Below are positions 7,994 through 41,208 of a DNA stretch of 64,000 nt, piece by piece (within the stretch, counting starts at the first letter, position 1; each line of letters opens with the position of its first letter). A model generated the notes under the pieces. That model made no database searches. It was given only the letters and a program-made list of their open reading frames with translations, and had not been told where the DNA came from. The stretch comes from Candidatus Uhrbacteria bacterium. GTDB lineage: Bacteria > Patescibacteriota > Patescibacteriia > GWA2-47-26. The stretch spans positions 64,856 through 128,855 of the forward strand of contig JACPJN010000006.1 in assembly GCA_016187515.1 (NCBI GenBank). The letters run 5' to 3'. A program made the position numbers and the translations under genes.

Positions 7994-8011
7994 CACTCTC
8001 ATAATAGATCC

Positions 8012-8048: not shown

Positions 8049-8066
8049 GCGGTTGATTGCCTACTC

Positions 8067-9233: not shown

Positions 9234-9265
9234 GGTTTTTCTCCTTCTCGGCTTTCGGTTTCGGT

Positions 9266-10092: not shown

Positions 10093-10121
10093 AATATAAC
10101 ATAAATAGCGGGATTTGTCAA
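10093..10121 (-). promoter_or_regulatory. Promoter TTGACA-N17-TATATT for the 9886->8067 operon.
   Basis: Minus-strand cTTGACAaatcccgctatttatgtTATATT; the -35 box lies inside the terminator hairpin of the upstream kinase gene. Confidence 0.45.
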
Positions 10122-10150
10122 GTCCTTGATGGCTTGAACAAATCCCGCTT
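10108..10150 (-). terminator. Intrinsic terminator after the kinase gene.
   Basis: Stem agcgggatttgt...acaaatcccgct, followed by atttatgttat on the minus strand. Confidence 0.5.
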
Positions 10151-10158
10151 TCGTATCA

Positions 10159-11493: not shown

Positions 11494-11627
11494 GGCAATG
11501 CTCCTTCCTGAAGATGTGGCTCGAGACATCGCTCGAGCAAGTTTTCGAGGAACAATCGCTGGGATTTTCAAGCCCGTCCAAACACCCTGTTTCACAACCA
11601 ACGCGGGCCTAAAATCACCAACAATTC

Positions 11628-11656
11628 AGTATACACAAAAAAGACCTGGTTGTCAA
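11628..11656 (-). promoter_or_regulatory. Promoter TTGACA-N17-TATACT for the kinase gene, embedded in a bidirectional hairpin.
   Basis: Minus-strand cCTTGACAaccaggtcttttttgtgTATACTg; hairpin gacctggttgtc-aagg-acaaccaggtc at 11643..11669. Confidence 0.45.
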
Positions 11657-12015
11657 GGACAACCAGGTCCCGTCGTTCTTTTTTCCCCATCCACACCAGA
11701 CGCGGCATGGCGGTGTGCCCGAGCAGCATTGGGGGAACGCCCCGACACGACAGCGCAGGCAGGCAGGACGGTTGGGGATCCTGCCAAGGAGACCCGCAGA
11801 CCCCACCATTCACCCAAGCGAGAGACGCCTGACGGCGATGTGGCAAGGCAATTTTGGGAGCGTCTGCAGTCCTCTGCGCAATTTATTTCCTCATAATCCT
11901 AAATTGCGCAGGGACGGAAGAGGACCCTTGTATTGCCGCCCACCCTGACGGGACACGCCGCGCCCTCTCCTTACCGCGAGTTCCGCAGCAAGGAAAGCGG
12001 GGCGGCGCACGGACG

Positions 12016-24877: not shown

Positions 24878-27661
24878 TTATTTTGAAATATCACTGAAAA
24901 TATCTCCTAAATCACGCCGCACCTCATCTTCTGATAACCCGGCCCTAGAAAGAGAATCGCGTATTTCCGTAACAGATGCACCCTCGCTTGGCAATGCCGT
25001 ATCAAGTTTTACGAGCTTCTTGGAAAGTTCGCCAAATTCCACGCCCATTCCTCTTTCTAACCCGGAGATCTCGCTATTCAGATCTTTAATGAGTTTTCTA
25101 ATGGCACGAAATATCGGTTGATTTTCAACAAACCCGGGCCGTGCAATATCGCGCATGACCGCACCCATTTGCGGCTTAATCGAGGTCTGAATAATCGTGG
25201 ATTGCTGTATGATCTGCTGGGGAGCAGCGCCAGCTCCACCGCCAGTCGGCGCTGGACCAACGGGGGCAGGTTCTGATGGAGCAGCTGGAGCAGCTGGGGC
25301 AGGAGTTGGGGCAGCACCGCCAGCAGGCGCTCCGCCTCCTGCCGGAGTTCCTCCAGCAGGAGTTCCACCCGATTCCTCTTCCCTCGGCGGCTGTAATTTA
25401 CCTTTGTATTCGATTGTCTTGATAAGATTTCCTTCCTGGTCCACGATATTAAATTTTTTCTGACTAAGAATCTCTTTCATCGTCTTGTTGGTAATTGCCC
25501 CATACATGGCAAATACATAATCGCTGTTTATCTCGTCATTAAATTTAGAAACGTAATCGGCCATGGCCGTATTTCCTTGAACCTGGGGGTTTCCTCTTGG
25601 ATCTGCGGTTTCATGAATTTCCGTGCCTAAACTCCAAGCTGGCACTCGCCTTTGTATGCGGGTCGGCTCTCTTGCTGCTGATGGCGCCATTGCATGAATC
25701 ATTGCTGTCTCTGCCTCACCTATTGTACCGTAAGTATCTGCAGAATCCTCCGCGTCAATCCTCCCTTCTTTATTGGGGGCTTGTCGTAGCGCATGAAATA
25801 CATGCGGCGCGGCGCCAGTACGATCGCGATCGCCAAGCTTACCAAACTCTTCGAGCGCGTAGTCCTTAAGCCATTCCTTGTTTCCTACTTCATATTTGCC
25901 CTTCTCTGGATTATACCGAGCATGTCCAAGATATTCCCAGTGTTTCGTCTGCTTCCCCGGTTCTTCAAGAGCAGTAATCATGCGCAGTTGAAATTGCCAG
26001 CGATCAGCATCCGTGGTTGCCATATCTATTCCTTTACCGCTGCCCACTCCGGCGCCCGTCATATAATCCATAAGTAATTCCTGCAGCATTTCTTTATTGT
26101 AAAATGTGCCATCCGTATAGCCATACTTCTGACGGCCAAGATCCACTAATTTCTGGCGCAATACCGGCATGCGGGCAATATCATCTAAAAATCCTCCGTG
26201 TGCGGCAACCGAGACAATCGCCGCGCGCGCGCGTTCACCTTCCGGTCCGCCAAGGGTCTCGAGTTCCACCGCTTTTCTCATGACTGCTTCTTTGGACAAG
26301 AACGAAAAATCTTTAGCATATTGACCTACCAGCCCATGCTCCGCGACCTCGCGCAACGGAAGCCGCCGCTTTCCACGAGTAAAAATAATATTCGACTCTT
26401 CTTCTGCTTCAGCCGATGCGATTTTCCGTGATTCCTCCAGCAAAACTTCCCCCCGTTTCAAAAAACCTTTCCAGCCAGTAGGGGTGGCGTACTTGACTGC
26501 GCGGCGTAATACTCCTCCGCCGGGTTTTGTTGAAAAATCCAGCAGTGCTCGCTCTGCCCGATGTAATCCCAACCCTGCCCCAAACGCAACCGGCGCGGCC
26601 AGGGCTTTCCCGCCGAACCTCAAGGCGCGGGTAGCGGCGCTCTTGGCTTTCCCCGCCACGCCCGCAATGGCCCCGCCCATTTGCTGGGACATTTGCACTC
26701 CGGCCAAAAGCATAAAGATCCCGATAATGTAGGTAATGAACGCATCCGTCGAGCCCACTCCCGAGCACGCGGTCTGGATAACCGTGTCCTCCGCCGGTTT
26801 ACCCTCCGGGAAAAGCGTGCTGGCCGACTCTCCGCCGCCTACCGTAATAAGCGCGAGCCAAATAAAGAACGCCAGCATTGGCCCGGCCATGGTTTGATTT
26901 TTAAATTCTTCCCACCACTGCGCGTAATACTTTTGTCCTTGCGGAAACGTGCCGGCTAAAAATGCCACCGGCGAAAGAATCGTCAGCAGCCAAAGCATAA
27001 TAATGCGCAGAGCGAGCACCGCGAAAATCACAAAGATCGTGACAATCGAGACCAGCACCATGCCAAAGGCCAAAGCATAAGCGCCAAACACTTCCCAAAT
27101 CCCAATCTCCTGACATCCGGAAGAAGTAAAACCGCCCTCGGCCTTTTTTAAAATATCCGCGATTTTAAAAAGATTGGCAAAATTTCCGCCAGCCGCGGCT
27201 TTAAAACCATTGACAAAGGTGAGCATGATCACCTGGGAAAAATCAATAAACACGCCCATGATGGTGCGTGAAAAATTCACGAGCACTGCCAAAATGAGCA
27301 GTTTAGGAAGGAGCTTTTTGTAGTGATATTCTTCTTGGCCCAAAATCGTGCCAAAGGCAATCAGGAGGAGCACCACGATAAAAAACATGTTGGCTACGTC
27401 GCGGACAATCACCCAACCCGCGACGACCGGCCGCGCGTTTACAAAATCCGTGTACTGGGCAATCCAAATCACGGCCTGCACCAGCATGGTTAACACCCCG
27501 CCTAAAAATCTGGTAAAGACCTCGAGGATCCGGGTCAAGATTCGCAACACATCATCACCAAGTCCAAAACTCTCCGCCGCGCGAATTGGCCAAGCCAAAA
27601 CCAAAACCCCCAGACCAAACAGGACTAGGCCGGACAAAATAATCTTCTTGCGCTTGGCCAT
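24878..27661 (-). CDS. Large polytopic membrane protein, putatively VirB6/TrbL-like, with an Ala/Pro/Gly-rich linker.
   Basis: Signal plus about 8 TM in the N-terminal 330 aa, then a long soluble region; located next to VirB4. Confidence 0.4.
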   Translation of the reverse strand: MAKRKKIILSGLVLFGLGVLVLAWPIRAAESFGLGDDVLRILTRILEVFTRFLGGVLTMLVQAVIWIAQYTDFVNARPVVAGWVIVRDVANMFFIVVLLLIAFGTILGQEEYHYKKLLPKLLILAVLVNFSRTIMGVFIDFSQVIMLTFVNGFKAAAGGNFANLFKIADILKKAEGGFTSSGCQEIGIWEVFGAYALAFGMVLVSIVTIFVIFAVLALRIIMLWLLTILSPVAFLAGTFPQGQKYYAQWWEEFKNQTMAGPMLAFFIWLALITVGGGESASTLFPEGKPAEDTVIQTACSGVGSTDAFITYIIGIFMLLAGVQMSQQMGGAIAGVAGKAKSAATRALRFGGKALAAPVAFGAGLGLHRAERALLDFSTKPGGGVLRRAVKYATPTGWKGFLKRGEVLLEESRKIASAEAEEESNIIFTRGKRRLPLREVAEHGLVGQYAKDFSFLSKEAVMRKAVELETLGGPEGERARAAIVSVAAHGGFLDDIARMPVLRQKLVDLGRQKYGYTDGTFYNKEMLQELLMDYMTGAGVGSGKGIDMATTDADRWQFQLRMITALEEPGKQTKHWEYLGHARYNPEKGKYEVGNKEWLKDYALEEFGKLGDRDRTGAAPHVFHALRQAPNKEGRIDAEDSADTYGTIGEAETAMIHAMAPSAAREPTRIQRRVPAWSLGTEIHETADPRGNPQVQGNTAMADYVSKFNDEINSDYVFAMYGAITNKTMKEILSQKKFNIVDQEGNLIKTIEYKGKLQPPREEESGGTPAGGTPAGGGAPAGGAAPTPAPAAPAAPSEPAPVGPAPTGGGAGAAPQQIIQQSTIIQTSIKPQMGAVMRDIARPGFVENQPIFRAIRKLIKDLNSEISGLERGMGVEFGELSKKLVKLDTALPSEGASVTEIRDSLSRAGLSEDEVRRDLGDIFSDISK

Positions 27662-27896: not shown

Positions 27897-28580
27897 ATGG
27901 AAAAACTGACGCGCCATGCGGCGCTGACCGCTCTTTTCACGTTCTGTACCGCTTCTTGCACGAGCAAAATCCCGAGCGAGGGGGGCGAGTCGGAACCCGA
28001 GGGCGACCAGCCCTGTCCCAGGGAGGGCTGCGAGACCGATATACCCTGCCGCGATGACGACCATTGCCCGGACGACGATCCCTGCCGCGACTACTTCTGC
28101 GAGGGCCGCGGCGGGTACTGCCGGTACACGGCGACCGACGAAGACGGCGACGGCTATGTGCGCGCCAGTTGCGGCGGAGGCGATTGCGATGACCGGCCGT
28201 CACATGGTCGGTACACCAATCCCGGCATGGAGGAAAGGTGCAATGGCGAAGACGACAACTGCGATGGCGAAGTGGATGAGGATCTGCAGGATCAGCCCTG
28301 CGGCCCCGCAACAGCAGTCGAATTCTGTCGCCTGGGAAGTCGGTCCTGCGCGGACGGGGCCTGGACCGAATGTACATGGAAGTTCTTCCCTCCGCAAGAA
28401 GAGGTATGCAGCGGCGGGGACGACGATTGCGAGTGGTGTTCGATGCTGTGCGATCCTGCCCATGATGGCTGTTGCTGTTCTTATCCTGATATCTGTTTTA
28501 GCGTGCGAGACGCAGACCGAGCCACAGACTACGGGGTCTGTATGTCCTACGATGAATTCACGTCTTACGATGAACTCTGA
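27897..28580 (+). CDS. Secreted Cys-rich lipoprotein with MopE-like repeats, a paralog of the 5579..7696 gene.
   Basis: MEKLTRHAALTALFTFCTASC...; DEDGDGY...CGGGDCDD...NPGMEERCNGEDDNCDGEVDED. The track start at 27798 is unlikely, because the promoter and RBS place the start at 27897. Confidence 0.6.
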   Translation: MEKLTRHAALTALFTFCTASCTSKIPSEGGESEPEGDQPCPREGCETDIPCRDDDHCPDDDPCRDYFCEGRGGYCRYTATDEDGDGYVRASCGGGDCDDRPSHGRYTNPGMEERCNGEDDNCDGEVDEDLQDQPCGPATAVEFCRLGSRSCADGAWTECTWKFFPPQEEVCSGGDDDCEWCSMLCDPAHDGCCCSYPDICFSVRDADRATDYGVCMSYDEFTSYDEL

Positions 28581-28669: not shown

Positions 28670-28740
28670 GCCCCTCACCCCATCCCCCCCTTCGCGAAGG
28701 GGGGACCAACCCTCTCCCCACGGGGAGAGGGGGTGTCGAG
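28670..28740. repeat. GC-rich two-hairpin palindromic element, intergenic copy.
   Basis: cccctcaccccatcccccccttcgcgaaggggggacc...ctctccccacggggagaggg. Confidence 0.6.
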
Positions 28741-28781: not shown

Positions 28782-28991
28782 TTATTGTTCCGGCGCGACA
28801 ATGATTCTACCTTGATAGAACGTCCAGGGACTAACGGGGCCTGGCGGGGGAACAGGCGGATGACTGCACTCCTCATCAAGGGCAAGGCCTCCGCCCGGAC
28901 TCGAATTATTTCCATACCCTCCATTGCAATATCCCCAATTATCTTTTATTTGCACTGCCGGACGGAACACACAGCAACCCCCGCGCACGCC
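28782..28991 (-). pseudogene. Orphan copy of the C-terminal module of the giant protein (GVRGGCCVFRPAVQIKDNWGYCNG + variable tip + GRIIVAPEQ). There is no upstream gene body.
   Basis: The conserved block differs from the true tail only by synonymous changes in the minus frame. Similarity begins exactly at GVRGG, adjacent to a terminator. Confidence 0.55.
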
Positions 28992-29155
28992 TAAACCATC
29001 TGTGCAAAATAAGGTCCGGCCGGACCTTATTTTGACTACTTGTTTTTGCCGCATTTACCGCAATTGAATTGACGGTATTTCAATTTGTGATATTTTCCAT
29101 TAACTTGACAAACCCCAGCCGCCTTGATACTCTGCGTTTGAGGAGAAAAACATGC
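28905..29155 (+). repeat. Duplicated cassette A: tail block + bidirectional terminator + TTGACA-N17-TACTCT promoter + RBS, up to the start codon.
   Basis: About 90% identical to 30150..30395, but fused to a non-homologous CDS. Confidence 0.7.
29105..29133 (+). promoter_or_regulatory. Promoter TTGACA-N17-TACTCT (cassette A).
   Basis: taacTTGACAaaccccagccgccttgaTACTCTgcgtttgaggagaaaaacATG. Confidence 0.45.
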
Positions 29156-29949
29156 AAAACCAGTACGCAGTTGCCAGAATTGGCAGAGTTTCCGTTCTTT
29201 TCATCATGCTCTTTGGAGCAGAAAACATCAGCTGTGGTGGAGAAGAAGGCCCTGCTGGACTGAGTTCCAATCCTCAGGACTGGCCGGTCCCGCCGCGGTG
29301 CGACTCAAGGGTCTGCGAGGTGGAAGCGCTGATAGACAATATGTGCGTTGAAGTGGAGGGAGTGGAGGACACAGAACTGGTCGGTATGTCCTGTAACATT
29401 AATAGCGACTCCTGCGAAGATGGGGTGTATGTGTGCCAGATGCTAGACTGTACACCGTTTATCGAGGAATGCTGCGACAACTGTCCCGAGTGGGAACGGT
29501 GGAAAGTTGGTTGTGAGCCGCGGTGCGCAGAAGAGGAAGATAAGCAAACGCAAAAACTCTTAAATGACCAGGCTGCAGAGCAATTCTGCGGCTGTCTGGA
29601 GGAAGAGGGGCTCTTGGGTGAATACCAGCTCTCGTGCACCGGACTTTGCCCCAGGTTTAATGGAGGTATTCCCTATGGAGAGCCCTTGTATGAACTTGAA
29701 AACGAGGCCCACTGCATTTGGGAGATGGCAATACACGGTATGCTCCATTACCTCACCGTAGACAGCAGTTGTCTTGACTCGGGCATTGGTCCCAATAGTA
29801 ACGGTGGAGAATGTGTAATCAATGCCAAAACATGCGACGAGGTGATTGCCTGTTTGTCTCCGGAGCAGAATCCGCATGATTACTGCGCAAATATCTGTGG
29901 CAACGCGCAAGATAGATGTATGAATGAATGCTGTTCTGCCCAAGAGTAA
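29152..29949 (+). CDS. Cys-rich secreted protein (about 30 Cys), unrelated to the MopE paralogs.
   Basis: Signal peptide MQNQYAVARIGRVSVLFIMLFGAENISC; RBS GAGGAG; terminator at 29986..30015. Confidence 0.55.
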   Translation: MQNQYAVARIGRVSVLFIMLFGAENISCGGEEGPAGLSSNPQDWPVPPRCDSRVCEVEALIDNMCVEVEGVEDTELVGMSCNINSDSCEDGVYVCQMLDCTPFIEECCDNCPEWERWKVGCEPRCAEEEDKQTQKLLNDQAAEQFCGCLEEEGLLGEYQLSCTGLCPRFNGGIPYGEPLYELENEAHCIWEMAIHGMLHYLTVDSSCLDSGIGPNSNGGECVINAKTCDEVIACLSPEQNPHDYCANICGNAQDRCMNECCSAQE

Positions 29950-30112
29950 GGGGTGAAAAATAAAGAGGACACCCATCCCGCACGTCCCAGCCTACTTTCT
30001 AGGCTGGTCTTTTTTATCTCACCCGCTGCGGAGCGGTGAGGTAAATTGTTTGCGTAGCCGGAATCCAAGGGCCGGCGGCATTCGGAGTATCCGGATTCCA
30101 TTGCGCATTGCA

Positions 30113-30235
30113 CTAATTATCAAAACAGGCCGTACCTCCGGGCGAAGTATTGCCGCCACATGTCCCGTTACAATATCCCCAATTATCTTTTATCTGCACT
30201 GCCGGACGGAACACACAGCACCCCCCGCGCACGCC
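30113..30235 (-). pseudogene. Second orphan C-terminal module (GVRGGCCVFRPAVQIKDNWGYCNGTCGGNTSPGGTACFDN*).
   Basis: Same conserved block and same upstream junction as 28782..28991. Confidence 0.5.
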
Positions 30236-30395
30236 TAAACCATCTGTGCAAAAAAGAGTCCGGCCGGACCCTTTTTTGATTACTTATTTTTGCCGCAATT
30301 GAATTGAATTGGCGGTATTTCAATTTGTGATATTTTCCATTAACTTGACAAACTCCAGCCGCCTTGATACTCTGCGTATAAGGAGGAACACATGC
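30150..30395 (+). repeat. Duplicated cassette B (tail block + terminator + promoter + RBS).
   Basis: See cassette A. Confidence 0.7.
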
Positions 30396-31279
30396 ACATC
30401 AAAACGTTCTTTTTCCTTTTTGCGCTGACATCTGGCGGGTGTACCAAATCTCTCATTTCTGACATGCACCGCGATGGTGGCATTGAAGGCGACCAGCCGT
30501 GCCCGGAAGAAGGGTGCGCAACCGATATCCCCTGCGCCTCGACGGACGACTGCGTTCAATTGGATGATTCACCATGCCACGCTACGTTTTGCCACTCCGG
30601 TTTAGGAACTTGCTGGTGGCATCCATGGGACGGCGACGGCGACGGATTTCTGTCTACACTATGCGGGGGACGTGATTGTTTGGAGGCAGCGCCTTGTTCG
30701 GATCCTGTCACGCCGAAGTGCCTCCTCAGATATAAAAGTGCGCAGAGAACCTATGAAGGTGCGCCAGAGGTGTGCGATGGGCTGGACAATGATTGTGACA
30801 AGCGTGTAGATGAAGGCATCCACTGCGAAGTAGAGGATACTTGTCCTAAGGATACATTCGCGCTTGAATCCACCGAGGGAAATCCGGACGACTGTGACGC
30901 GCCAGAGTCGGAACGCTTTGTGGAGCCGTCCAACAACTCGTTTGCAGGCGCTCCGCTGCTGAATGCGAACGCTGCAGGTTCTGTCTTCGGCGAGTTCCAT
31001 GTGTGTTGGCCCGGCGATGTGGACATCTACGGCTGGCGTATGACCAGACCCGGCCCCTACCGATTCTGCGTGAATTTCACCCATCGCCATGGTGATTTGG
31101 ATGTTGCCTTCTTTGGTCCCGCGCACCAAATAGTCGCGCGTTCACAGTCATGCACCGACAATGAAGAGATTGAGGTACAAGTGCCGCCACAGCAAAAGGA
31201 CGCTCTGTGGTTTATCGCGGTCAACGGCTGGGATGGCGCAACCAACAGCTACACGATCGCTTTGGGCGATTGCCGCTAA
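30392..31279 (+). CDS. Lipoprotein with a MopE-like Cys-rich repeat and a C-terminal pre-peptidase C-terminal (PPC)-like domain.
   Basis: MHIKTFFFLFALTSGGC; the N-terminal region is paralogous to the 27897 gene (EGDQPCPEEGCATDIPC); the C-terminus GDVDIYGWRMTRPGPYRF...DLDVAFFGP...YTIALG is PPC-like. Confidence 0.6.
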   Translation: MHIKTFFFLFALTSGGCTKSLISDMHRDGGIEGDQPCPEEGCATDIPCASTDDCVQLDDSPCHATFCHSGLGTCWWHPWDGDGDGFLSTLCGGRDCLEAAPCSDPVTPKCLLRYKSAQRTYEGAPEVCDGLDNDCDKRVDEGIHCEVEDTCPKDTFALESTEGNPDDCDAPESERFVEPSNNSFAGAPLLNANAAGSVFGEFHVCWPGDVDIYGWRMTRPGPYRFCVNFTHRHGDLDVAFFGPAHQIVARSQSCTDNEEIEVQVPPQQKDALWFIAVNGWDGATNSYTIALGDCR

Positions 31280-31334
31280 ACCACGCGCAATAGAACTCCG
31301 TGCCGCCGTGCGCGGGACATACGATATATGCACA

Positions 31335-31367
31335 AAGCCGAGGTTAGGAGAACCACGGCTTTTTTTA
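31335..31367 (+). terminator. Intrinsic terminator (aagccg-loop-cggctt + T7) in the convergent junction with the giant gene.
   Basis: aaagccgaggttaggagaaccacggcttttttt. Confidence 0.45.
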
Positions 31368-31417
31368 GGTCCAAACTACCTGTCACCGTTTAGTTTCCAC
31401 TCGGCCATCATCCGCGA

Positions 31418-34400
31418 TCATGGCGCTACAATTATCCGTCCATCAAACACTGTCCATCCGCCTGGGGATTGCGACGCGGGCCGATCAGGGTTCCAAGGAT
31501 GGTTACAGGCCGAATCAATACAACTCCCATTAACCGCCCCGTCAATACCACCGCATATTCCATTGCAATATCCCCAATTATCTTTTATTTGCACTGCCGG
31601 ACGAAACACACAGCATCCGCCGCGCACGCCAGAAGCCGGACAGGTATCAACCCAATTCGGACCCACCCCTCGTTCACAAGTATAGAGAGTTTCAAATTGA
31701 AATGGCTGTCCAATACAGCTGACATTTTCTTGCAAGCCAAAGTTGGTTCCGTCGCATAATGGCGCATGATTTTGGAATAACCCGTCTAATCGCGTGATCT
31801 GTTGGTCATCATCCCAATCAATACTAACCCGCCCAATCGGCATGTGGTCTTTATCAGCAACTCCATAAAATTGTAGTGTGGTTAGTAATGAACCGCGTCT
31901 GGAGATAATATCTCCTTCTATATATTGACCGCCCTCTGCAATTATACGTACATCGGATACTTCCGGTGTCCTTAACCTGCCTTGCATACGGGCATCCCAT
32001 GCTCCTACTACACCTATTCCGGTCTCCACCGCGTCAAATTGACTATATCGCCCCCTGTGAGGTTTTGTATCAGAATTAACCGGTCCCCAGCTAAATCCTT
32101 TAAATGACCGGGCAAATAATTGTTGTATATCTGCTTCCGCGCGTGCTGCATTAGATGGATCCGCGTCAGTTAAGGGCTCTTCCGGTCCCGCTGTAATCCT
32201 ACTACCTGTACCGGGATTAGGTATGGAAGAATTAACTGCGCATTTGTGAATTGAGTGCCCTCCGCCACAAGTGCCCCCTCTTAACTCGCACAGTCGCCTG
32301 GCATTTCCATACGTCCGGCATGTACCTGTAACACCACCAGGCCTATTGGGTGTAAATTCCGCAGTTATACCATCGCTTGCAGAGCTACTGCATGCTGAAC
32401 TCTCTACATTATAAGATGTACCTAGAGGAATTCGCTCCGAAACACAAGTGTGACCGTCATCCGCTCCCCCAACACAGGTGGATGCTTGCAAACTGTAGGA
32501 AGAGGTATGGTTATTATTTAGTGTACTAAATGGCGCGATGGATTCAGCGCAGGAAAATGGCCATCCAGCAAATTCTGAAAGATCGCGGATGCTATCACTG
32601 GCTTCCATTCTGTTCCAATTAAGAAACCATGGATTGTTATTGCCGCTCGTTGGCGGATCATCTTGCGCGGATGAAGATCCAAATGGAGGTAGGCCTGTAT
32701 TGTAATTATAATCCAGGCCATAATTCTCAACTACATGGGTTGTTGATGGCCATAATCTATCTGTCCAAGGCGCGCTGCGCAAAGGATCCACTTTGGTTAT
32801 GTCAGTACATTGCGGATTCAGACGCACTTTAACATCGAAATATACTTCTGCGCTATGTTCATTAGTACACACTGCCAGACGGATGTACTCTAATCGCTGA
32901 TTATCATCAAACCGAAGCAATACTGCTGCGGCATCATAAGCTGAAGCTGGCAGGTCTCTACCGACGATGTCAGTACAATGTATAATATGCTCGGGAATAT
33001 TAACTGAATAATCTCGCAATGCTTCTGCCAATCCTCTTAATGCAGTACTACTCATCCCACACCCGCGGCCAACTCCAGTATCATTGCAATTATCATCAGA
33101 AGCCCACCACCACCAATCTTCGTCCACTTCGGCAAGGGTATTCCAGCTCAGATAATGAATGCCGTCGTCTACGTCGCCTAGAAGGCGACTATCATTGACA
33201 GCATCGTTATTATTGGCCTCAAGATAATAATTTCCATTTAGCGCAGACGCCTTCCAGGGCTCTCCCGCAACCCCCGCAATCTCCACAATGACTCCTTTAA
33301 TATCATACTTACGTATATCATAATCTAATGGCACCTCAAAGGTACGGATGACTGCTTCGTCGCCGCCACTGCGGCGCCTTCCTTGGTCATCTGCACCGGC
33401 TCTAATACGGAACCCATTTGCACCCAAAATTTCCGGGAACCTTATTTCTCGCACCGGTTCATCTGATGCAAGGCACCAATACTGTCCGCCAACGGGGGGT
33501 ATTTGGTAACCGGCTTGGGCAAATTGATTGTTGATATCAACCGCTGCCGCTAGTTGATCAACCGGCCACCAAGTTAGACAAGCGCTGCGGTCTGGATCAT
33601 TGTAAATGCGGGAGTATGGCGCGGTATCTTGCTCAAGACAGTATCCTTGCCAACCGCGTACAATCAAATCCGCTGTCCTTATAGGACCATCATCACGATT
33701 ATCAAGATTACCCGGCGTAGTTTCGCGGGTAATCGGGTAATATCGCACATTGCCAATACCATATTCTGCTTTCTTATAATCACAACCGCATACCCGTATT
33801 CCATCGTCAATCTCGGCAAAAGGTGTTACGCATTTCGGCGCATTGGAAAATGCGGGAGAGTTAATCGTGCCCGTCCGCTCTCCCACTACTCCACTTTTGG
33901 GGAATGGCGAATTAACCTCTGGAAATCCGCGGCACAGCGGCTGCTGAAGAAGTATGGGGGCTGCTTCGGCAGGTGTAGGGGGTGTAAATGCAAGATAATA
34001 ATTCCGCCCCTGAAATTCAGGACTACTCACATCTATTTCTCTTAATTTTTCAAGAGGATATAAATTTGGAATTGCGTATCCAGCGTATTCCGCACCAAAG
34101 AAAGACCGATCGCGTTTTCGGTATATTTCACTGTTCAAAGTCTGCGATTCGCAAATACCTCCCCTTGCAATACATTCTGATGGTGTTATTTGATCTTCAG
34201 CATAAGGATGCGGCGCACATGCTTTAGTTCTATCTATGCCTACAACACAAACTGCTGGTTCCGGATTGATAATCCATCCTCCGCAATTCTGCAAAGTTGG
34301 ACCCCCGCTGGCGGCAGGAAGCGGAATTTTTGCGCAACGTCCAATTCCCAGACAAGCGGTTTTTATTTTCTGATCTTCCGGGGACCAGACCAACTGCGCG

Positions 34401-37400
34401 CGGGTGCACTGCAGCCACTCGGCGCACTCCCTGTCGCGGGCTACTTTAAGCAAAGTGTTGACATTGTTTATAGGTTCGCATATACCTCCCCCCTCCACGC
34501 AAACCGCTTCACCAATGTCTAAATTTCGATCAGCCAGCACAATGCCGCCGGTTGTTGGCAGGCACCACTTGCTGTTATGTGTGCCCCCACGGCATCGCCT
34601 ATCTCTCCTACCTGATTCGGTAACCGGAGGTACCACCGCCCCGCCCTGTCGTTCGCTTTCGTCGTAGGTTGCTTGCGCCGACCAAAGCTCGGCCGGATTT
34701 TCAGTGTTGTCAAACAGCACGCACCCTTCTTTGCGCGAAACCAAACCTCGGCACTCACTCCGGGCAACGGCCAGCCGTTCATTATCTTTACGGTAATAGG
34801 GCTTGCCGTCCGGGTGCTCCGGCGCTGTATCGGTGGGATCCACAAACTCGGCGCAAGTTGACTCGGCTTTTGGACAAAGCCCTACGCGCCGGCCTGCCGC
34901 ATACCCCGCATCCGCATTGCGCCAAATCCCAAAGGTTGATCCGCCGGTAAGATAGTCGTCTATTGGTTCCAAAAAGTTAAACCTTGTGAAAGGGGAAACC
35001 CCTCCATAGCAAGGTGTGTCTGCGACACATATTCCTTCTGTAGATGAAGTCGCCTGCCACTGGCCCCCAATTCCAGCGGTACACTTTTGTTGACACACAC
35101 TACAGGGTGGATTCGCACCTCCCTGGTCACAACTATCACAATTATCAATCCCATAACCACCAGAAAAAATATCCACACGGCGTCCTTCTGCGTCAATGCA
35201 CTTCTTAATAGATTGATTCCAAGTACCATATCCTTCGCATTGCGATTTAGTGGGAGGCGTCAGAAAAGAAGTAGACACCCTTTGCTTCTCCTTTTTAAAC
35301 CACCCTGAAAAGCTGCCAAGTCCAATCCGCACATTTTCCCGCCACTCGCAAAATCCGCCACCGGCTACTTCCGGGTCTTTGAAGTATGACTCGCTGCCAT
35401 TACTGCGCGACCACGCCGCGCAGCCGGTGGCCTCAACCGCGCAAAGATCAGAACCATAACGAGTGGGATCGTTGCGGCGATACACCGCGGCGGTCTCGCC
35501 GGCATTAACCCCCAGCGCTTGGCATCCTTTTTGTTCGGCTTTACAGACAATGTCCGGCCGCACCTCGGGATTGATGACTACATAACGCAAACGATCCGCG
35601 TCAACCGTAACATCGTCTTCCGAATCCGGAGCGGATGCTCCAGTATTAAAGGTCTCTTCAAACGGGGAGACGGTCAGCCGCGTGTCAATCAAACGGCTGC
35701 AGCCAACCGACTCATCCCGACACAGGCGCGAAAACGAACGCAAGTAGGAAGCGCCGCCCGCGCGATCCGTATAACTATTGCATCCGAGCATTGCTCCGCG
35801 CAGCGGTCCTCCGCCGACGGCCGCGGGCAGCTCATCACAAGCCGCGGGAATATCCCAAGTATGTTTGACCAGATATAGCGTATCGGAAACCGCACGCAAA
35901 CGCACCTCATCAATAAAGTAAGTAATGGCGTTTCCGGAAACATTCTTAAAGGTTAGCGCTGCCGGCACATCCGCCAATACCACCGGACCTAAGTCAAAGA
36001 ATTGCCAATCCGGAGTCAGCCGGAGGTTGCCAAAATTTCCGCCGTTAAGCGCCACGTCCACTGAAGAGTTAATCGAACCTTTAACCACCATACTGACAAA
36101 ATAGGTAGCTCCGCCTTCCAGTCCGGCCCCCTCCAGCGCGCGAGAAAGCGTGGAATCATGCGCCGCCCCGCGCACGCGCAGGGACTTATCGCCCACGCGC
36201 AAGGCCTCCGCGGAAAGCTCTGCCCGGCCCCCGTCGGTCCGGGTCCACCGCACTGTTGCATCATCGCCAGCCGGGAAAGTATCATTAAACAGCATGCGCA
36301 CATTGCCGGCCGTATCGCCCTTAAAGCCGCGGCAGCCGGAAACCTGCGGCCGACACGATTTTGATGCCGACGGCGCGCCTAGATAGACGCACTGCAGCGT
36401 AGCCGTATTCCAGAAACCATGGCTGTCTTCACAGGCCAAGCGTTCGAGCGTCGAGCGCAGCGCGCCTGCGGACTCTCCAGCCAGCGCCGGAACTTCCGGA
36501 AGGCGATCCGTCGTAAACCCGGTCCAGCGGTAGACCTGGCACTCGGGGGTGGAAAGAATGGTCTGCGAAATTCTACGGTGAAAAATGTTGCCGTTTTCAT
36601 CGTAGAAAGCCCGACAATCCGCGCGCTCTTCCAAAGACAAGTCCGGATCAGCTGAATTGCAAACCGCTTGATTTTCCTCGCGATCCTCGCAAGTTACGGT
36701 AATGGCCTGCGTGGCCCTCTCCACGCTGACCGCGTAATTGGTACAAGGCGGAACCGCGCGGTCGCGATTATGCTCCACGGCCAAATCCTCGGAATCAGTC
36801 GTATAGAAAATATTGGAAGATTTCAAATTAAAACTGCGCAACTGATACCCGCGCTCGTCCGAACCCTCCCAGGTAAAGTAGGTTTTTGAATCATCGCCGG
36901 GAACGGGCGTCTGGCACGCGCGCAGATCAGTATAATACTCCCGGGCTTCAGTACGCAGATTAGTAAACTCATCACAGCCGGCCTCTGGCGCGGTGCATTT
37001 CGCGGTGCGGCTGGGAATAATCCTGTACATCTGCTCTTCGGCTCTTCCCGCAGGCCAAAGGCCTCCGCGCCCCTCTTCTCCGAGTTCCTGTCTCGTGAAC
37101 GCCGGCTCAAATCGCGAGGACTGCTTGATATAAGTATCATAGCCCACGCAGGATTGCGGACACTCGTCCAGGGCCGTCTTAATTCCCGGAATCGGATCTC
37201 CGCCTAAGGTGGGGGTATACCGCTCACAGCTCGCTTCTTCCGGTCGGCACATACCCGCGTACTGGCCGCATTCGGGTACGTCCGTGCTCTCCCCGGTACA
37301 ACCCAGGTAATCCGGGGGCAAACGGTAATACACATTTTGCTGCGCGCCAACATACGCATGGCCGTCATGGTAGTCAGTCGGCGCAAATCCTTCTTCAAGC

Positions 37401-40372
37401 TGAATGGCATCAACCATCAAACCCGGGGCCAAAGAATCCTGCGCGTGCGCGGGCATGATCAGGCGATCTAAAATGCTTCCACTGCCGGCGGCAATGGTCA
37501 GGTTATTAGGCACTTCAATCCATAATGTTGAAATTCTCAACTGCGCATCGTCTGCGGCAGTAAAGGGCAGCGCAAAACGGCAGGAAAACCGCTCATAGGA
37601 GCCGCTGGCGCGGATGTATTTGGTTATCGTGCTGTCGCCAACCACATCGCAATCACTCGGCTGGCCGCGCATACTTACGCCCGCTGCGTTCAGCCCGGCA
37701 AAAGTTATTTGCAATCGCGGGGGATTGGCCGGTAAATATGCGGTCTGGGGAGTCAATTTCGCGTACAAAGAAACTGTATAAGTTTTTCCGGGCGTTACAT
37801 TTATGGTTTGGTTCATCCGTAATGAGTGGTACGCCGTAACGGCAGGTTGTTGCGGTGAAACTCTGGTTCCCTTTTGGGTTGCCGCGCCTTTTCCCTGCGT
37901 ATCCCGCACAGTACGACCGCCAGTTCCTGCCGGAGATGTGCCGTCAGCACTACCGGAACGCGCATCCCCGGCCCTTATTCCGCTTGGCGCTCTTGGCGGC
38001 GCGGCTTCATCTTCGTCCGTTTCTTGATCTGAAGTGGAAGCGCCTATTCCGGTACCTCTAATACCGCCGGTCGCGCCCTCTTGCACGGCTGCCCCTGTCC
38101 CTGTGTCATCTTTATCGTCAGTTGGTGCAGTGCCTGTACTACCCAACGTAGTGCCGTGCGAACTTGCTATTGTATAATCCGGGATGGCCGCGCTTAGGTC
38201 TGATGAGCTGATAATCAACATTGCTCCTGCGCCATGATAAGCGTCCCCGACCCCGCGCAGGTAAGAGTTGTATGATGGTATTCTAACCCAACCATCCGGA
38301 AATCCGTTGCTATCCGCGTCGTTTTCAAACGATCCATTGTTTATCAAATTAATGGAGGATCCGACGTTGGCAATAAGCTCGGTACATCCTGCTGCGGACG
38401 AATCGCATGCTGGCGCGTCCTGATCCAGGTAAAGGCGCCCGGACACGCCAAGATCCCAGCGCCACTGCCCATCCGTACTACGGCTCTGCCTGGTTAAATA
38501 GCGCGTACATCCGGCGTTGGCGGCATTGCACACTCCAAAATCCACGGTATTTTCCAAAAGCGACACCTCTTGCGGCCGCGCCCCGCCCTCGCCAGTCCCG
38601 CCTTTGCGGAAAGTATCGCACGAGGCATACTGCTCACCGCAATGCTCGCCGCCCAAGCCCCAGATATTTTTCTCCCGCGTGCAGTATCCGGTGGCGCGGC
38701 AGCTGCCGTCTTGGTCAAGCGCTACACAGTGCCGCAAATCCGCGCAGCTCTCTTGCCGCCCGGCGCCCGACAAATCCACCCGCTCGCCCCAAACCAACGC
38801 GTTACACTTGGCTGCCGGAGCTTTAAGTATCCAGTTGGGATCCACTAAACCGCAAAATGGGGATTCATCATCAATGGTGCCATCCGGGCGTTTCCCGCAC
38901 ACTCCATCTGGCCCGGTTTTATTCCACCCGTCAACCACTTCGCGCAAAGTAAAAGTTTGCCCACTTCCGCGGATTTTAAGCGCGGCAAATTCCCAACCCA
39001 CCGGAATAACGCGCAAAAGACGCAATTTTTTCATTGATGAATAAGGGTAACCCTCGGCAACAGTGGGCTCAATGCCTTCTTCCGGATTGATAAATCCAAA
39101 CGGCTTGGCGCCATCCAGTAGTCCATTGCGCGGATCCATCGCCTGCGCCACCGTGAACGGCTGTCCATCCGGACCGCCTTGCAAGGCCAGCATAAACTTA
39201 TCGTCAATGGTGCAATTAAATTGACTGGCGACGCGGGGATTAGCCGGACAGGCATTCAGCTCGGTCAAATATTCAAACGTGCCTTGGGGAGTGCGTATTG
39301 CTCCCGCGGCGGAAATCAGCCCGATCGCGCTTGATGAAAGACCAGCCGTGCCTTCCTGGGTGGGATCGCGAAACGTTCCGCCGCCAACCAGCGACCGCAG
39401 GTCCGGCGGCTGAAACGGCGCGCCTGGCCCAAAAATACCCTGCAGAGCAAGTCGGAGCATTCGAGAAATCAAGGTGTTGGTAAAAGTAGCCAGAACAGTG
39501 GTCCCCACCGCGGCCCAAACCTGGCCGCTCCCTAACGTCGCTCCCACAATCGCACCTACCTCCGGGGTTTGGTTTTCTCCCTGTTCGGTAATGTTTTCAA
39601 AATTTTTCCTGATCACGACCGAGGGAGTAGTAATATTGCCGGAAATCGGACTGATCTGCGGGCGAATTCCTTGTCCTTCTTCGCGTTCTTTCTCGGCGGC
39701 CTTCTCATCTCTGGCGATTTTGATGCGAAATTGTTCATGCGCGAGAAATGCCTGGCCAAAGTCGGTTTGCTTAGTATCAAAACCTAACGACACGTGGCGC
39801 AGAAGAGCGTTGGGATCTTGTACTTCGCGCACTAAATTCTGCCAATTATTGATTGTGCCGACAAAATCGCAGCGCGGAGTAGGCGGCTGGATTTCGGAAA
39901 TTAGTCCCAGTTGGATAGCCAGCCCAATATCGGGAAGGCGCGGATTGCAAAGATCAAAGCCCAGCTCGGCCCAGGGCTCGGCCAGGGTCCCGATAAATTC
40001 GCCGGCCGCGGCATAGAGCTTGGAAGTCAGATAAGTGCCGAAGGAGTCGCGAAACGCGCAAGCATTCTGACCGCGGCAGCCCGAAGCCAGCCCCACGGCT
40101 AAATCATAGGCAATCTGCTGGCCAAACAGCGTAATCGCGTTAATCAGTCCGACCGTGGCAGAAGCAATAATCGCTTGGCCAAAACCTAGGCGCACCTCGC
40201 GCTGAACTTCGATTGTCTCCAGCGCCGGGGCGCTGACCACCAGTTGCGCGCGCGCGCCTTGTGGAGTTCCCAACGCGCTTACCGCAAACACAAACGTAAA
40301 ACAGAAAAGCACGACACTGCCAATAATTTTCTGCCGCTTGATTGAATTTCTTTCAGATCCGCTAGGCGCCAT
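31418..40372 (-). CDS. Giant (2984 aa) secreted Cys-rich surface protein with CBM-like domains and a Gly/Thr-rich linker; likely an adhesin.
   Basis: Signal peptide MAPSGSERNSIKRQKIIGSVVLFCFTFVFAVSALGTPQGARAQ. NGSFEND...GFPDGW and TVRWTRTDGG...SLRV segments typical of carbohydrate-binding modules. The C-terminus carries the module that is duplicated downstream. Confidence 0.7.
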   Translation of the reverse strand: MAPSGSERNSIKRQKIIGSVVLFCFTFVFAVSALGTPQGARAQLVVSAPALETIEVQREVRLGFGQAIIASATVGLINAITLFGQQIAYDLAVGLASGCRGQNACAFRDSFGTYLTSKLYAAAGEFIGTLAEPWAELGFDLCNPRLPDIGLAIQLGLISEIQPPTPRCDFVGTINNWQNLVREVQDPNALLRHVSLGFDTKQTDFGQAFLAHEQFRIKIARDEKAAEKEREEGQGIRPQISPISGNITTPSVVIRKNFENITEQGENQTPEVGAIVGATLGSGQVWAAVGTTVLATFTNTLISRMLRLALQGIFGPGAPFQPPDLRSLVGGGTFRDPTQEGTAGLSSSAIGLISAAGAIRTPQGTFEYLTELNACPANPRVASQFNCTIDDKFMLALQGGPDGQPFTVAQAMDPRNGLLDGAKPFGFINPEEGIEPTVAEGYPYSSMKKLRLLRVIPVGWEFAALKIRGSGQTFTLREVVDGWNKTGPDGVCGKRPDGTIDDESPFCGLVDPNWILKAPAAKCNALVWGERVDLSGAGRQESCADLRHCVALDQDGSCRATGYCTREKNIWGLGGEHCGEQYASCDTFRKGGTGEGGARPQEVSLLENTVDFGVCNAANAGCTRYLTRQSRSTDGQWRWDLGVSGRLYLDQDAPACDSSAAGCTELIANVGSSINLINNGSFENDADSNGFPDGWVRIPSYNSYLRGVGDAYHGAGAMLIISSSDLSAAIPDYTIASSHGTTLGSTGTAPTDDKDDTGTGAAVQEGATGGIRGTGIGASTSDQETDEDEAAPPRAPSGIRAGDARSGSADGTSPAGTGGRTVRDTQGKGAATQKGTRVSPQQPAVTAYHSLRMNQTINVTPGKTYTVSLYAKLTPQTAYLPANPPRLQITFAGLNAAGVSMRGQPSDCDVVGDSTITKYIRASGSYERFSCRFALPFTAADDAQLRISTLWIEVPNNLTIAAGSGSILDRLIMPAHAQDSLAPGLMVDAIQLEEGFAPTDYHDGHAYVGAQQNVYYRLPPDYLGCTGESTDVPECGQYAGMCRPEEASCERYTPTLGGDPIPGIKTALDECPQSCVGYDTYIKQSSRFEPAFTRQELGEEGRGGLWPAGRAEEQMYRIIPSRTAKCTAPEAGCDEFTNLRTEAREYYTDLRACQTPVPGDDSKTYFTWEGSDERGYQLRSFNLKSSNIFYTTDSEDLAVEHNRDRAVPPCTNYAVSVERATQAITVTCEDREENQAVCNSADPDLSLEERADCRAFYDENGNIFHRRISQTILSTPECQVYRWTGFTTDRLPEVPALAGESAGALRSTLERLACEDSHGFWNTATLQCVYLGAPSASKSCRPQVSGCRGFKGDTAGNVRMLFNDTFPAGDDATVRWTRTDGGRAELSAEALRVGDKSLRVRGAAHDSTLSRALEGAGLEGGATYFVSMVVKGSINSSVDVALNGGNFGNLRLTPDWQFFDLGPVVLADVPAALTFKNVSGNAITYFIDEVRLRAVSDTLYLVKHTWDIPAACDELPAAVGGGPLRGAMLGCNSYTDRAGGASYLRSFSRLCRDESVGCSRLIDTRLTVSPFEETFNTGASAPDSEDDVTVDADRLRYVVINPEVRPDIVCKAEQKGCQALGVNAGETAAVYRRNDPTRYGSDLCAVEATGCAAWSRSNGSESYFKDPEVAGGGFCEWRENVRIGLGSFSGWFKKEKQRVSTSFLTPPTKSQCEGYGTWNQSIKKCIDAEGRRVDIFSGGYGIDNCDSCDQGGANPPCSVCQQKCTAGIGGQWQATSSTEGICVADTPCYGGVSPFTRFNFLEPIDDYLTGGSTFGIWRNADAGYAAGRRVGLCPKAESTCAEFVDPTDTAPEHPDGKPYYRKDNERLAVARSECRGLVSRKEGCVLFDNTENPAELWSAQATYDESERQGGAVVPPVTESGRRDRRCRGGTHNSKWCLPTTGGIVLADRNLDIGEAVCVEGGGICEPINNVNTLLKVARDRECAEWLQCTRAQLVWSPEDQKIKTACLGIGRCAKIPLPAASGGPTLQNCGGWIINPEPAVCVVGIDRTKACAPHPYAEDQITPSECIARGGICESQTLNSEIYRKRDRSFFGAEYAGYAIPNLYPLEKLREIDVSSPEFQGRNYYLAFTPPTPAEAAPILLQQPLCRGFPEVNSPFPKSGVVGERTGTINSPAFSNAPKCVTPFAEIDDGIRVCGCDYKKAEYGIGNVRYYPITRETTPGNLDNRDDGPIRTADLIVRGWQGYCLEQDTAPYSRIYNDPDRSACLTWWPVDQLAAAVDINNQFAQAGYQIPPVGGQYWCLASDEPVREIRFPEILGANGFRIRAGADDQGRRRSGGDEAVIRTFEVPLDYDIRKYDIKGVIVEIAGVAGEPWKASALNGNYYLEANNNDAVNDSRLLGDVDDGIHYLSWNTLAEVDEDWWWWASDDNCNDTGVGRGCGMSSTALRGLAEALRDYSVNIPEHIIHCTDIVGRDLPASAYDAAAVLLRFDDNQRLEYIRLAVCTNEHSAEVYFDVKVRLNPQCTDITKVDPLRSAPWTDRLWPSTTHVVENYGLDYNYNTGLPPFGSSSAQDDPPTSGNNNPWFLNWNRMEASDSIRDLSEFAGWPFSCAESIAPFSTLNNNHTSSYSLQASTCVGGADDGHTCVSERIPLGTSYNVESSACSSSASDGITAEFTPNRPGGVTGTCRTYGNARRLCELRGGTCGGGHSIHKCAVNSSIPNPGTGSRITAGPEEPLTDADPSNAARAEADIQQLFARSFKGFSWGPVNSDTKPHRGRYSQFDAVETGIGVVGAWDARMQGRLRTPEVSDVRIIAEGGQYIEGDIISRRGSLLTTLQFYGVADKDHMPIGRVSIDWDDDQQITRLDGLFQNHAPLCDGTNFGLQENVSCIGQPFQFETLYTCERGVGPNWVDTCPASGVRGGCCVFRPAVQIKDNWGYCNGICGGIDGAVNGSCIDSACNHPWNPDRPASQSPGGWTVFDGRIIVAP

Positions 40373-40386
40373 AGGTCCTATTGGTC

Positions 40387-41208
40387 TTATCTTTGCAAAT
40401 CTTTTAGCGCGTCTTTATATAAGCCAATCAACTGCTCATCATTAAATTTTTCCAGTACGGATTTTTCAATCCCGGAACCGGAAAGCAGCTCGCGGATCTG
40501 GGCAGCCGTCGGATTCTCCGGCAACTGCCCGGCTTTCCCCTCACCCGACCCCGCTCCCCGCACTATCCCCCTCTCCGCCCCCGGCTTTCCTCCCCCTTCC
40601 GGGGGGAGGATTAAGGTGGGGGGCGGGGGTGAGGGGTTCCGCGCGGACTCTTGAAAAATTTTCACCAGCGCCTTATCGTCAAACTGTCCTAAAATCTCCT
40701 CTGCAATTCCCGCCTGACGCAAAAAATTCCGAATCGCGGGCGCGTCCGTCACGCCCGGAATTCCGCTTTCGGCCAGTTTCGCGGCGAGCGTTGATTCGTA
40801 AAGACTCTTGGCAATCCGCTCTTGCTCCACTTCGCGAGCGGAAGGAAAACGGAACGCTTGGCAGTCCGTGCCGCGGGGACAATTCGGATCTTCCCCGGCG
40901 TCCAGCTCTTCTTTATCCGAGAACCCGTCCGAGTCGGTATCCGGCAGGTACGGACTGGTTCCGTACACTTCCCGTTCCCGAATATCCGGAATTCCGTCTT
41001 GATCGGTGTCTTTGGTCGCACCTTCCAGCTCATTCTCAAAATCTCCGGAAAATGCCAAGGGATTGGCCGCGCCAGGAGGGGGTAAGTTAAAAGGGGCTCG
41101 CAGACGATCCGGAAAAGTATGAAACGCCAAGGCAAAGCTGCCAATGCCCAGCAAAAAAAGGGCTAAAAATCCAAAAACTATAGCGCGTGGCGCCCGGTCC
41201 TCGTTCAT
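40387..41208 (-). CDS. Membrane-anchored protein with thrombospondin-type-3-like Ca-binding repeats (DTDQDGIPD / DTDSDGFSD) and an in-frame GC-palindrome insertion.
   Basis: N-terminal TM; lies 15 nt upstream of the giant gene, so probably in the same operon. Confidence 0.5.
   Translation of the reverse strand: MNEDRAPRAIVFGFLALFLLGIGSFALAFHTFPDRLRAPFNLPPPGAANPLAFSGDFENELEGATKDTDQDGIPDIREREVYGTSPYLPDTDSDGFSDKEELDAGEDPNCPRGTDCQAFRFPSAREVEQERIAKSLYESTLAAKLAESGIPGVTDAPAIRNFLRQAGIAEEILGQFDDKALVKIFQESARNPSPPPPTLILPPEGGGKPGAERGIVRGAGSGEGKAGQLPENPTAAQIRELLSGSGIEKSVLEKFNDEQLIGLYKDALKDLQR

Follow-up and report, generated by a model that had tools for sequence, protein, structure and literature searches.

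A 64-kb stretch of a Candidatus Uhrbacteria genome (Candidate Phyla Radiation, CPR, or Patescibacteria), here called the window, carries a gene for a giant Cys-rich surface protein, and the 3' end of this gene recurs twice downstream as copies that have no start codon of their own and are under purifying selection. The C-terminal tail of the giant protein, about 70 aa long, opens with a conserved block and ends in a divergent tip. The two downstream copies, termed orphan 1 and orphan 2, alternate with genes of Cys-rich lipoproteins. We propose that the orphans are silent and that only the copy joined to the 9-kb gene body is expressed. We tentatively favor, at nearly even chances, the reading that the orphans are silent 3'-end cassettes which recombine with the expressed gene.

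The block comprises the first 24 codons of the tail (GVRGGCCVFRPAVQIKDNWGYCNG) and is present in three minus-strand copies, which have 93-96% identity over 72-83 nt. Among the copies, seven of these codons vary, and all eight nucleotide differences are synonymous (chance probability ~7e-6), as the original prediction, made from the DNA letters alone, had claimed. The tips had been described there as different from each other and 16-46 aa long, and this did not hold. The homology among the three copies spans the entire tail, the tips are 45-49 aa long and 37-42% identical within the window, and the 16-aa tip of orphan 2 is the effect of an in-frame TAG, past which the sequence stays in frame with clear homology (CNAQWNPDTPNAAGPW...) until the original TAA. 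The C-terminal end of orphan 1 reads WTFYQGRIIVAPEQ and that of the giant protein WTVFDGRIIVAP, each followed by the stop codon; the ends PWTFYQGRIIVAPEQ and GGWTVFDGRIIVAP, respectively, were likewise compared. Orphan 1 lacks two Cys residues conserved in the family, but since the same pair is absent from the expressed tail of the sister genome S (contigs L001 and L021-L023), this loss is compatible with function. Exact-protein look-ups of the orphan 1 open reading frame (ORF) and of lipoprotein A1 gave no match.

Orphan 2 was compared with its ortholog in S. The two differ by 21.5 synonymous and 9.5 nonsynonymous changes (dS 0.62, dN 0.061, dN/dS 0.10, binomial P=3e-7), and the tip alone gave a dN/dS of 0.14 (P=3e-4). 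The differences at the three codon positions number 4, 6 and 22, the sole indel is 3 nt long, both copies end at the same stop codon, the S copy is intact, and the tip is 83% conserved. In a six-frame comparison, only the tail frame behaved as coding; coding on the opposite strand (plus-strand ORFs 28785..28994 and 30050..30238) was rejected, with a pN/pS (ratio of the proportions of nonsynonymous and synonymous differences) of ~2.5. The DNA identity of orphan 2 to S was 84.5%, compared with 72.8% for the adjoining VirB6-like core gene. The constraint on orphan 2 is not borrowed from the giant genes, because their tips are 27-37% identical to orphan 2, the longest identical run between the giant block and the orphan in S is 14 nt, and an exhaustive profile search did not reveal another expressed gene whose tail is of the orphan 2 type and could refresh it. 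Between the giant gene and orphan 1, pS was 0.19 in the block and 0.87 (saturated) in the tip, where the frame is still open and the family motifs are kept; in the last seven codons of orphan 1 (GRIIVAP), six of six nucleotide changes are synonymous. These results show purifying selection on the start-less orphans, with much stronger support than in the original prediction, whose description of 5'-truncated copies beside an expressed gene, with a conserved 5' block and then divergent tips, was borne out.

No conserved start codon, ribosome-binding site (RBS) or signal peptide was found when orphan 1, orphan 2 and the S orphan were compared. The sole possible start of orphan 1 is an ATG at 29054, which has no RBS and is not present in orphan 2, and a terminator hairpin lies inside the resulting ORF. 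On the tail strand, a hairpin followed by a T-run is located directly upstream of the orphans.

The last 215 aa of the giant protein were modeled with AlphaFold (AF2; pLDDT 73.7, pTM 0.69). The model contains a single beta-sandwich at residues ~35-215. Strands 151-154 and 157-162 of this sandwich come from the block and the final strand (211-213) from IIV; the long Cys-rich loop that lies between them corresponds to the variable tip. The block is thus modeled as the penultimate strands of a ~180-aa C-terminal beta-sandwich, and neither as a toxin boundary nor as a classical sorting signal. In the same model, the orphans cover strands 151-162 and 211-213 plus the loop, which amounts to 2-3 of ~10 strands and ~40% of one domain; they cannot fold as separate proteins. 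In a Foldseek search, the terminal domain had no more than weak matches, of the Ig-like/E-set kind (TM ~0.3). The sole Pfam match of the giant protein is CBM_4_9, and Pfam, searched at thresholds up to E=10, gave no support for a likeness to the PKD domain motif (WDxGDG ... H.Y ... V.V.D). A known sorting signal or toxin was rejected, as the tail has no match in Pfam or NCBIfam, and no toxin-domain match of the tips was found in these databases.

Relatives of the giant protein were searched for with a back-translated DNWGYCNG pattern and then with the exhaustive profile search. The pattern detected giant ORFs in Magasanikbacteria and other Patescibacteria metagenome-assembled genomes (MAGs), with the motif 46-92 aa before the stop codon. 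The profile search yielded 234 cluster representatives, always matched at the extreme C-terminus, with the window giant retrieved at the top as P0004. The tail aligns over its full length with the C-termini of these representatives, and the family consensus is C.F.P.VQ..DNWG.C.G.C...GC...C...PWT.F.G.IIV.P. Full-length members have 2500-3300 aa, and the short matches are probably mostly gene fragments of short contigs. The window giant belongs to this family, with the domain at its extreme C-terminus, a small lipoprotein gene next to it and VirB4/VirB6-like genes nearby; the synteny of giant, lipoprotein and VirB genes was seen in the window, L016, L021/L022, L025 and L026. Directly upstream of the giant gene and in the same direction is a gene (40387..41208, minus strand) whose 273-aa product has a bacterial TSP3 repeat. 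L016 has a similar ORF upstream of its giant gene (tblastx), and a TSP3-repeat gene occupies this position in L030. The TSP3-repeat protein may be a conserved partner of the giant protein.

The tails are part of a tandem array of three units, in each of which a promoter cassette precedes a plus-strand gene for a Cys-rich lipoprotein, and a minus-strand tail of the giant gene converges with this gene (Table 1). The periods of the array are 1244 and 1395 nt, all tail copies are direct repeats, and the array sits between the giant gene and the TrbL/VirB6-like gene. The type IV secretion-like synteny of the window is also present in L021 and L025. Short-read contigs from at least 13 samples matched the window with 100% identity over 29084..30251 and 30324..31588, including the TAG of orphan 2, and since these contigs are independent, a misassembly of the array was ruled out. 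The contig of one sample (L019) ends at 30118/30119, 3 nt beyond the orphan 2 TAG, where the contigs of other samples continue; this may reflect a polymorphism near the nonsense codon or just low coverage. The stand-alone fragments inside duplicated cassettes that had been predicted are therefore a real duplication, but the third unit of the array had been overlooked. A tandem segmental duplication undergoing concerted evolution is securely the anatomy of the locus. It had been considered beforehand that the block might prove to be a common C-terminal sorting signal embedded in such a duplication; the block is indeed a common C-terminal module within one, and this leaves the coding-type constraint on start-less fragments unexplained.

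Table 1. Positions of the array units and neighboring genes in the window
Feature	Position	Strand	Unit	Remarks
VirB4/TraG-like ATPase gene	18440..20284			With the TrbL/VirB6-like gene, a type IV secretion-like cluster
TrbL/VirB6-like membrane protein gene	24878..27661	-		927 aa; borders the array
Lipoprotein A1 gene	27897..28580	+	1	227 aa; MopE motif; paralog of A2 and of the single lipoprotein in L016
Orphan 1	28782..28991	-	1	Full-length tail copy, 69 aa + TAA; block 28920..28991
Repeat-cassette copy 1	28992..29151	+		Hairpin 29005..29034; TTGACA-N17-TACTCT 29105..29133; RBS; ends at lipoprotein B ATG
Lipoprotein B gene	29152..29949	+	2	265 aa; Cys-rich; no Pfam match; identical protein HYW17_01600 (NCBI, Candidatus Uhrbacteria)
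Orphan 2	30014..30235	-	2	Full-length tail copy; block 30164..30235; in-frame TAG 30113..30115; original TAA 30014..30016
Repeat-cassette copy 2	30236..30391	+		Hairpin 30247..30278; TTGACA-N17-TACTCT 30345..30373; RBS; ends at lipoprotein A2 ATG
Lipoprotein A2 gene	30392..31279	+	3	295 aa; MopE-type Cys-rich motif PF11617; convergent with giant tail; exact copy on Logan contig L020
Expressed tail	31418..31630	-	3	Block 31559..31630; 46-aa tip; TGA
Giant gene	31418..40372	-		2984 aa; Cys-rich; N-terminal signal-anchor helix; expressed copy; last ~180 aa modeled as C-terminal beta-sandwich

Both orphan units share ~236 nt with 91-94% identity (28921..29156 and 30165..30396). The shared sequence starts at the block, includes a 13-bp bidirectional hairpin, TTGACA-N17-TACTCT and GGAGG, and extends to the ATGCA of two different lipoprotein genes. 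Both hairpin copies fold on both strands, with two compensatory base-pair changes between them as judged by eye. The -10 hexamer is weak (3/6) and the promoter was not called by a consensus scan, while the promoter is kept in four copies across two genomes. In S, the hairpin is found upstream of the lipoprotein B (LipoB) gene without an adjacent orphan, so it is part of the lipoprotein promoter cassette. The predicted duplicated cassette of terminator, promoter and RBS ending at an ATG was thus confirmed, except that the hairpin belongs to the lipoprotein and the -10 element is weak. Palindromes similar to a repetitive extragenic palindromic (REP)-like element lie between the lipoprotein A1 gene and orphan 1 (28671..28740). 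A REP-like C-rich/G-rich hairpin (CCCCTCCCCTAACCCCTCCCACCGAGGGAGGGGGATTTT) occurs at 1503..1540 (plus strand) and 59336..59373 (minus strand) of the window, distant from each other, and also in the intergenic region adjoining the array in S (L021 1659..1696).

The lipoprotein genes paired with the tails had been called different and non-homologous. The two orphan cassettes do end at two different genes; the lipoproteins are not all unrelated, though, because A1 is a paralog of A2 (41% identity, both with PF11617). Their convergence with the tails was as predicted, and they have their own promoters and signal sequences. Lipoprotein B and its S ortholog (L022 107..907) are conserved only over the N-terminal ~130 aa, and the promoter and the first ~58 aa (GLSSNPQDWPVPPRCDSRVCEV) are nearly unchanged between them. 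Lipoprotein B thus consists of a conserved head and a replaced or hypervariable body. In S, the promoter cassette after orphan 2 (L022 1371..1430, equal to L001 170..215) retains a LipoB-type start (ATGCAAAACCA). Next come another GGAGG and then the ATG of an unrelated lipoprotein of 264 aa. Because of this remnant, the lipoprotein ORFs appear to have been swapped just past the conserved promoter, RBS and start.

The gene order in S is VirB6-like, LipoB, orphan 2, unrelated lipoprotein and giant, and the number of units is one in L016, two in S and three in the window. In the window, the longest exact identity of the giant gene is 45 nt with orphan 1 and 23 nt with orphan 2. As the synonymous divergence in the block is four-fold lower than that in the tip, the block has been subject to gene conversion. 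AAA (K) and AAT are common to the three window copies, while by eye the corresponding codons are AGA/AAC in the S orphan and AGG/AAC in L016. These results show concerted evolution of the block. The junction between orphan and hairpin is identical over 32 nt in both window orphans and is different in S, where the orphan retains 20 aa of the gene body (DVYFCQKDEGPNWVDICPAS). Independent recent orphanization in the window and in S was judged unlikely, because by eye the junction beside the promoter cassette appears homologous. Whether the orphan 1 tip represents the tip type of the S giant was also considered, as both are without the same two Cys; their identity of 31% is at the background level, and this was rejected.

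Constrained orphans recur in three other lineages. In L026, a start-less orphan of 231 codons lies 5 kb downstream of the giant gene, with a dN/dS of 0.21 and a mosaic of identity (first 120 nt 97-100%, block 100%, tip 53-63%). In L027, a 276-nt repeat with 96% identity ends exactly at the stop codon and has a terminator hairpin immediately upstream; of the 11 differences in this repeat, 10 are synonymous, and these include one per codon in the final six codons. In L025, the giant gene is followed by a lipoprotein gene, and an orphan with a paralogous lipoprotein gene lies further downstream. HicAB and MNT/HepT toxin-antitoxin modules are located between the array units of L025, an independent Patescibacteria MAG (9563..12636), and a third relic of the tail start (FSFGSTADTGCKEEPL) is fused there to the next ORF at 12075. 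The truncation points of the orphans differ by lineage (69, 94, 118, 231 and 91 codons). L030 was not used for the orphan comparison since the contig is apparently frameshift-ridden.

In the reading that we favor, unequal homologous recombination and gene conversion would have made and reshaped the tandem array, and the two downstream tails would act as a small pool of alternative C-termini. The 72-83-nt block, kept near-identical by gene conversion, would supply the homology for RecA-type exchange, which the exact identities of 45 nt (orphan 1) and 23 nt (orphan 2) would permit. Such an exchange would replace the long Cys-rich loop and the last strand of the terminal beta-sandwich. The surface protein would be linked to type IV secretion, and its terminal sandwich presumably serves as a tip for contact or adhesion. 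Exchange with the expressed gene, exchange as the reason for the selection, and the role of the tip are what we infer rather than observe. There is a precedent in Rhs loci, where orphan fragments without initiation and export signals become active when they recombine with the main gene (PMC3967940).

Several observations weigh against this proposal. No recombinant has been observed, and short-read assemblies break inside the repeats. Identical runs 3' of the tips are at most 5 nt, with no homology beyond the stop codons in an alignment read by eye; the L026 and L027 copies have 3' similarity in part. Without 3' DNA homology, a two-sided gene conversion of the whole tip is hard to picture, and a single crossover between direct repeats would delete the resident tip together with a lipoprotein gene. 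The repertoire amounts to two copies, and in all samples checked one of them, orphan 2, is interrupted by a nonsense codon. In S, the expressed and orphan blocks are too diverged to recombine (14 nt), yet the orphan is intact. The L027 orphan adds no diversity because its tip is identical to the expressed tip. No relative expressing an orphan-type tip was found among those compared, and no recombinase, reverse transcriptase or other dedicated machinery was found among the scanned ORFs of at least 150 aa in the window; apart from the genes described here, these ORFs gave housekeeping matches or none in Pfam.

Another explanation, which we consider unlikely but serious, is that the orphans are a by-product of segmental duplication. 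The lipoprotein genes, or their promoters and terminators, would be the selected part, the 3' end of the giant gene would be carried along as a non-functional passenger, and its coding look would result from recent origin, gene conversion, or import from strains still expressing that tail. The exact tandem periodicity, the varying unit number among relatives, and L016 with its single giant and lipoprotein pair as the simple state are in agreement with this, as are the hairpin and promoter that belong to the lipoprotein rather than to the orphan. So are the nonsense codon of orphan 2, the two Cys missing in orphan 1, the demonstrable refreshing of the block by gene conversion, and the near identity of the L027 orphan to its parent tail. 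However, orphan 2 was apparently an orphan before the split of the window genome and S, given its same flanks and a junction remnant that looks homologous by eye. Since that split it has accumulated a dS of 0.62 under a dN/dS of 0.10, the tip included, with no resident gene that could refresh the tip. Furthermore, the saturated tip of orphan 1 has kept an open frame, the family motifs and the purely synonymous changes in GRIIVAP, and its missing Cys pair is also absent from an expressed tail. Each of the last six L027 codons changed synonymously, and the same pattern is seen in four lineages.

The orphans could also be displaced old tails. Horizontally acquired modules of tail plus lipoprotein would recombine at the block and push the former module downstream, where it would last for some time but not be reused, in line with the model for how CdiA/Rhs orphans originate. 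The window tips are as distant from each other (37-42%) as the tails of different genera (40% between the window and L016 giants). The pS/pN values over the whole tail are also alike, 0.64/0.27 for the giant gene and orphan 1 and 0.70/0.30 for the window and L016 giants. In S, the module adjacent to the giant gene (the tail and the 264-aa lipoprotein) is entirely unlike that of the window, whereas the distal orphan 2 unit is conserved. The stretch of gene body plus block in the S orphan has 86.5% DNA identity to the window giant over 104 nt, and the ATGCAAAACCA remnant precedes the second RBS and start, which also fits such replacement. This accounts for the origin of the orphans but not for continued purifying selection after displacement. 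Moreover, the tip and the adjacent lipoprotein are not inherited as a pair, and no donor lineage was identified. We regard this explanation as quite improbable.

Translation of the orphans in situ from unconventional starts, as small proteins, would explain purifying selection in the tail frame. Gene callers annotated ORFs over several orphans (P0001, P0090, P0045 and P0068), and there is the in-frame ATG upstream of orphan 1. Nevertheless, no start codon is conserved across orphan 1, orphan 2 and S, a Cys-rich extracellular module would have neither a Shine-Dalgarno sequence nor a signal peptide, and the putative ORFs contain the terminator hairpin or begin just after it. The product would hold 2-3 of ~10 strands of one beta-sandwich, with a truncation point that differs in every lineage, so that this possibility is very improbable. 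A nucleic-acid function, either as antisense RNA to the giant mRNA block from lipoprotein read-through or as a DNA site for a binding protein or recombinase, is the least credible explanation, for although the block is 93-96% identical and bracketed by plus-strand terminators, its variation is strictly third-codon-position in the tail frame and extends so through the tips, an Rfam scan of the window gave three tRNAs only, and a recombinase was not found there.

The locus was compared with known systems. Orphan C-terminal (CT) modules have been described for the polymorphic toxin loci Rhs, CdiA and MafB (Poole 2011, PMC3150448; Koskiniemi 2014, PMC3967940). Like these, the window orphans duplicate the 3' end of a very large gene for a surface or secreted protein, are truncated at the 5' side, and follow the main gene closely as direct repeats. 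Every orphan opens with a conserved shared stretch, has no initiation or export signals, and alternates with small accessory genes; in Salmonella, such orphans are activated by recombination with the main gene. In contrast, the repeated part here is the modeled end of a structural beta-sandwich rather than a toxin, the variable tip is ~45 aa, and the window tails have no toxin domain with a family motif (VENN, PxxxxDPxGL). Instead of a co-directional, co-inherited immunity gene, there are convergent secreted lipoproteins with their own promoters. The lipoprotein is not co-conserved with the tip, as the orphan 2 tip is 83% conserved and LipoB can be aligned only over the N-terminal ~130 aa. The locus also differs in its monoderm CPR host and in its linkage to a type IV secretion-like cluster. 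With neither a toxin nor a co-directional, co-inherited immunity gene, the locus is not a CdiA/Rhs/MafB system. The predicted likeness to CT cassettes and pilS is therefore right for the design of orphan-CT arrays and silent cassettes but not for membership in the polymorphic toxins.

With the silent cassettes of Neisseria pilE/pilS, Borrelia vlsE/vls, Mycoplasma synoviae vlhA and the functional pseudogenes of Anaplasma msp2, the array shares one expression site and promoterless, truncated copies that are open and constrained (dN/dS 0.10, synonymous-only changes in the block and GRIIVAP), though one of the two has a TAG. A conserved segment in concerted evolution adjoins a variable one, and, as in vlhA, the varying part is the 3' part of a surface protein. 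Unlike in those systems, there are only 1-2 cassettes, and one has a stop codon; the homology is one-sided, with 23-45 nt of exact identity in the 5' block and runs of at most 5 nt at the 3' side. No switching was observed, and no dedicated cis element such as a G-quadruplex (G4) or 17-bp repeats was identified. With homology on one side and no switching observed, the locus fits pilS/vls-type cassettes only in part. Shufflons and invertible C-termini (R64 PilV/Rci, Mu Gin, P1 Cin) likewise provide alternative C-terminal ends for a cell-contact protein, with a conjugation-type machine, but they use inverted segments and a site-specific recombinase, whereas the repeats here are direct and no recombinase gene was found in the 64 kb. 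Diversity-generating retroelements (DGRs), which are common in CPR, also diversify the C-terminal ends of surface proteins via a nearby repeat of the target 3' end. Here, however, a reverse transcriptase was not found, the substitutions are not adenine-specific but fall at third positions and are of all kinds, and full alternative peptides are encoded by the repeats. Machinery of the DGR, shufflon or integron kind was rejected, as none of the scanned ORFs in the window gave a reverse transcriptase, recombinase or integrase match. The locus is most like the orphan-module and silent-cassette systems, in a new protein family and a new phylum.

CPR bacteria live attached to host cells and need physical contact with them; to our knowledge, little has been described of the molecules and genetics of this contact. 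The locus ties a conserved giant surface protein to type IV secretion-like machinery. A more general form of our proposal is that CPR/Patescibacteria keep silent 3'-end cassettes and swap the loop and last strand of giant proteins linked to type IV secretion systems at a conversion-homogenized block, with variable lipoproteins co-amplified between the cassettes. This generalization is possible but doubtful. If true, it would be the first recombinational surface-variation system, for host-range or antigenic switching, described in the CPR radiation, with a mechanism distinct from the DGRs already known there. A literature search found no report of such cassettes in Patescibacteria, and no adhesin was reported in a 2025 survey of the type IV secretion systems of CPR bacteria (PMC12102498). 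If exchange of the fragments takes place, the array would provide a simple, machinery-free variation of the contact surface and a natural experiment on the origin and persistence of orphan modules. Even without exchange, start-less partial-domain fragments at a dN/dS of 0.1-0.2 call for explanation.

Elsewhere in the window, MopE-type Cys-rich motifs (PF11617, E=2e-17) are repeated in a 730-aa ORF at 5579..7771 on the minus strand. The region 6000..10000 has 66-69% GC, compared with ~52% elsewhere, and long ORFs overlap there on both strands. This GC-rich stretch may be of foreign origin or may be a secreted-protein gene of unusual composition. In addition, two Ser/Thr protein kinase genes (10159..11601 and 12016..13161, both minus strand) lie in a GC-rich part of the window with 61-62% GC.

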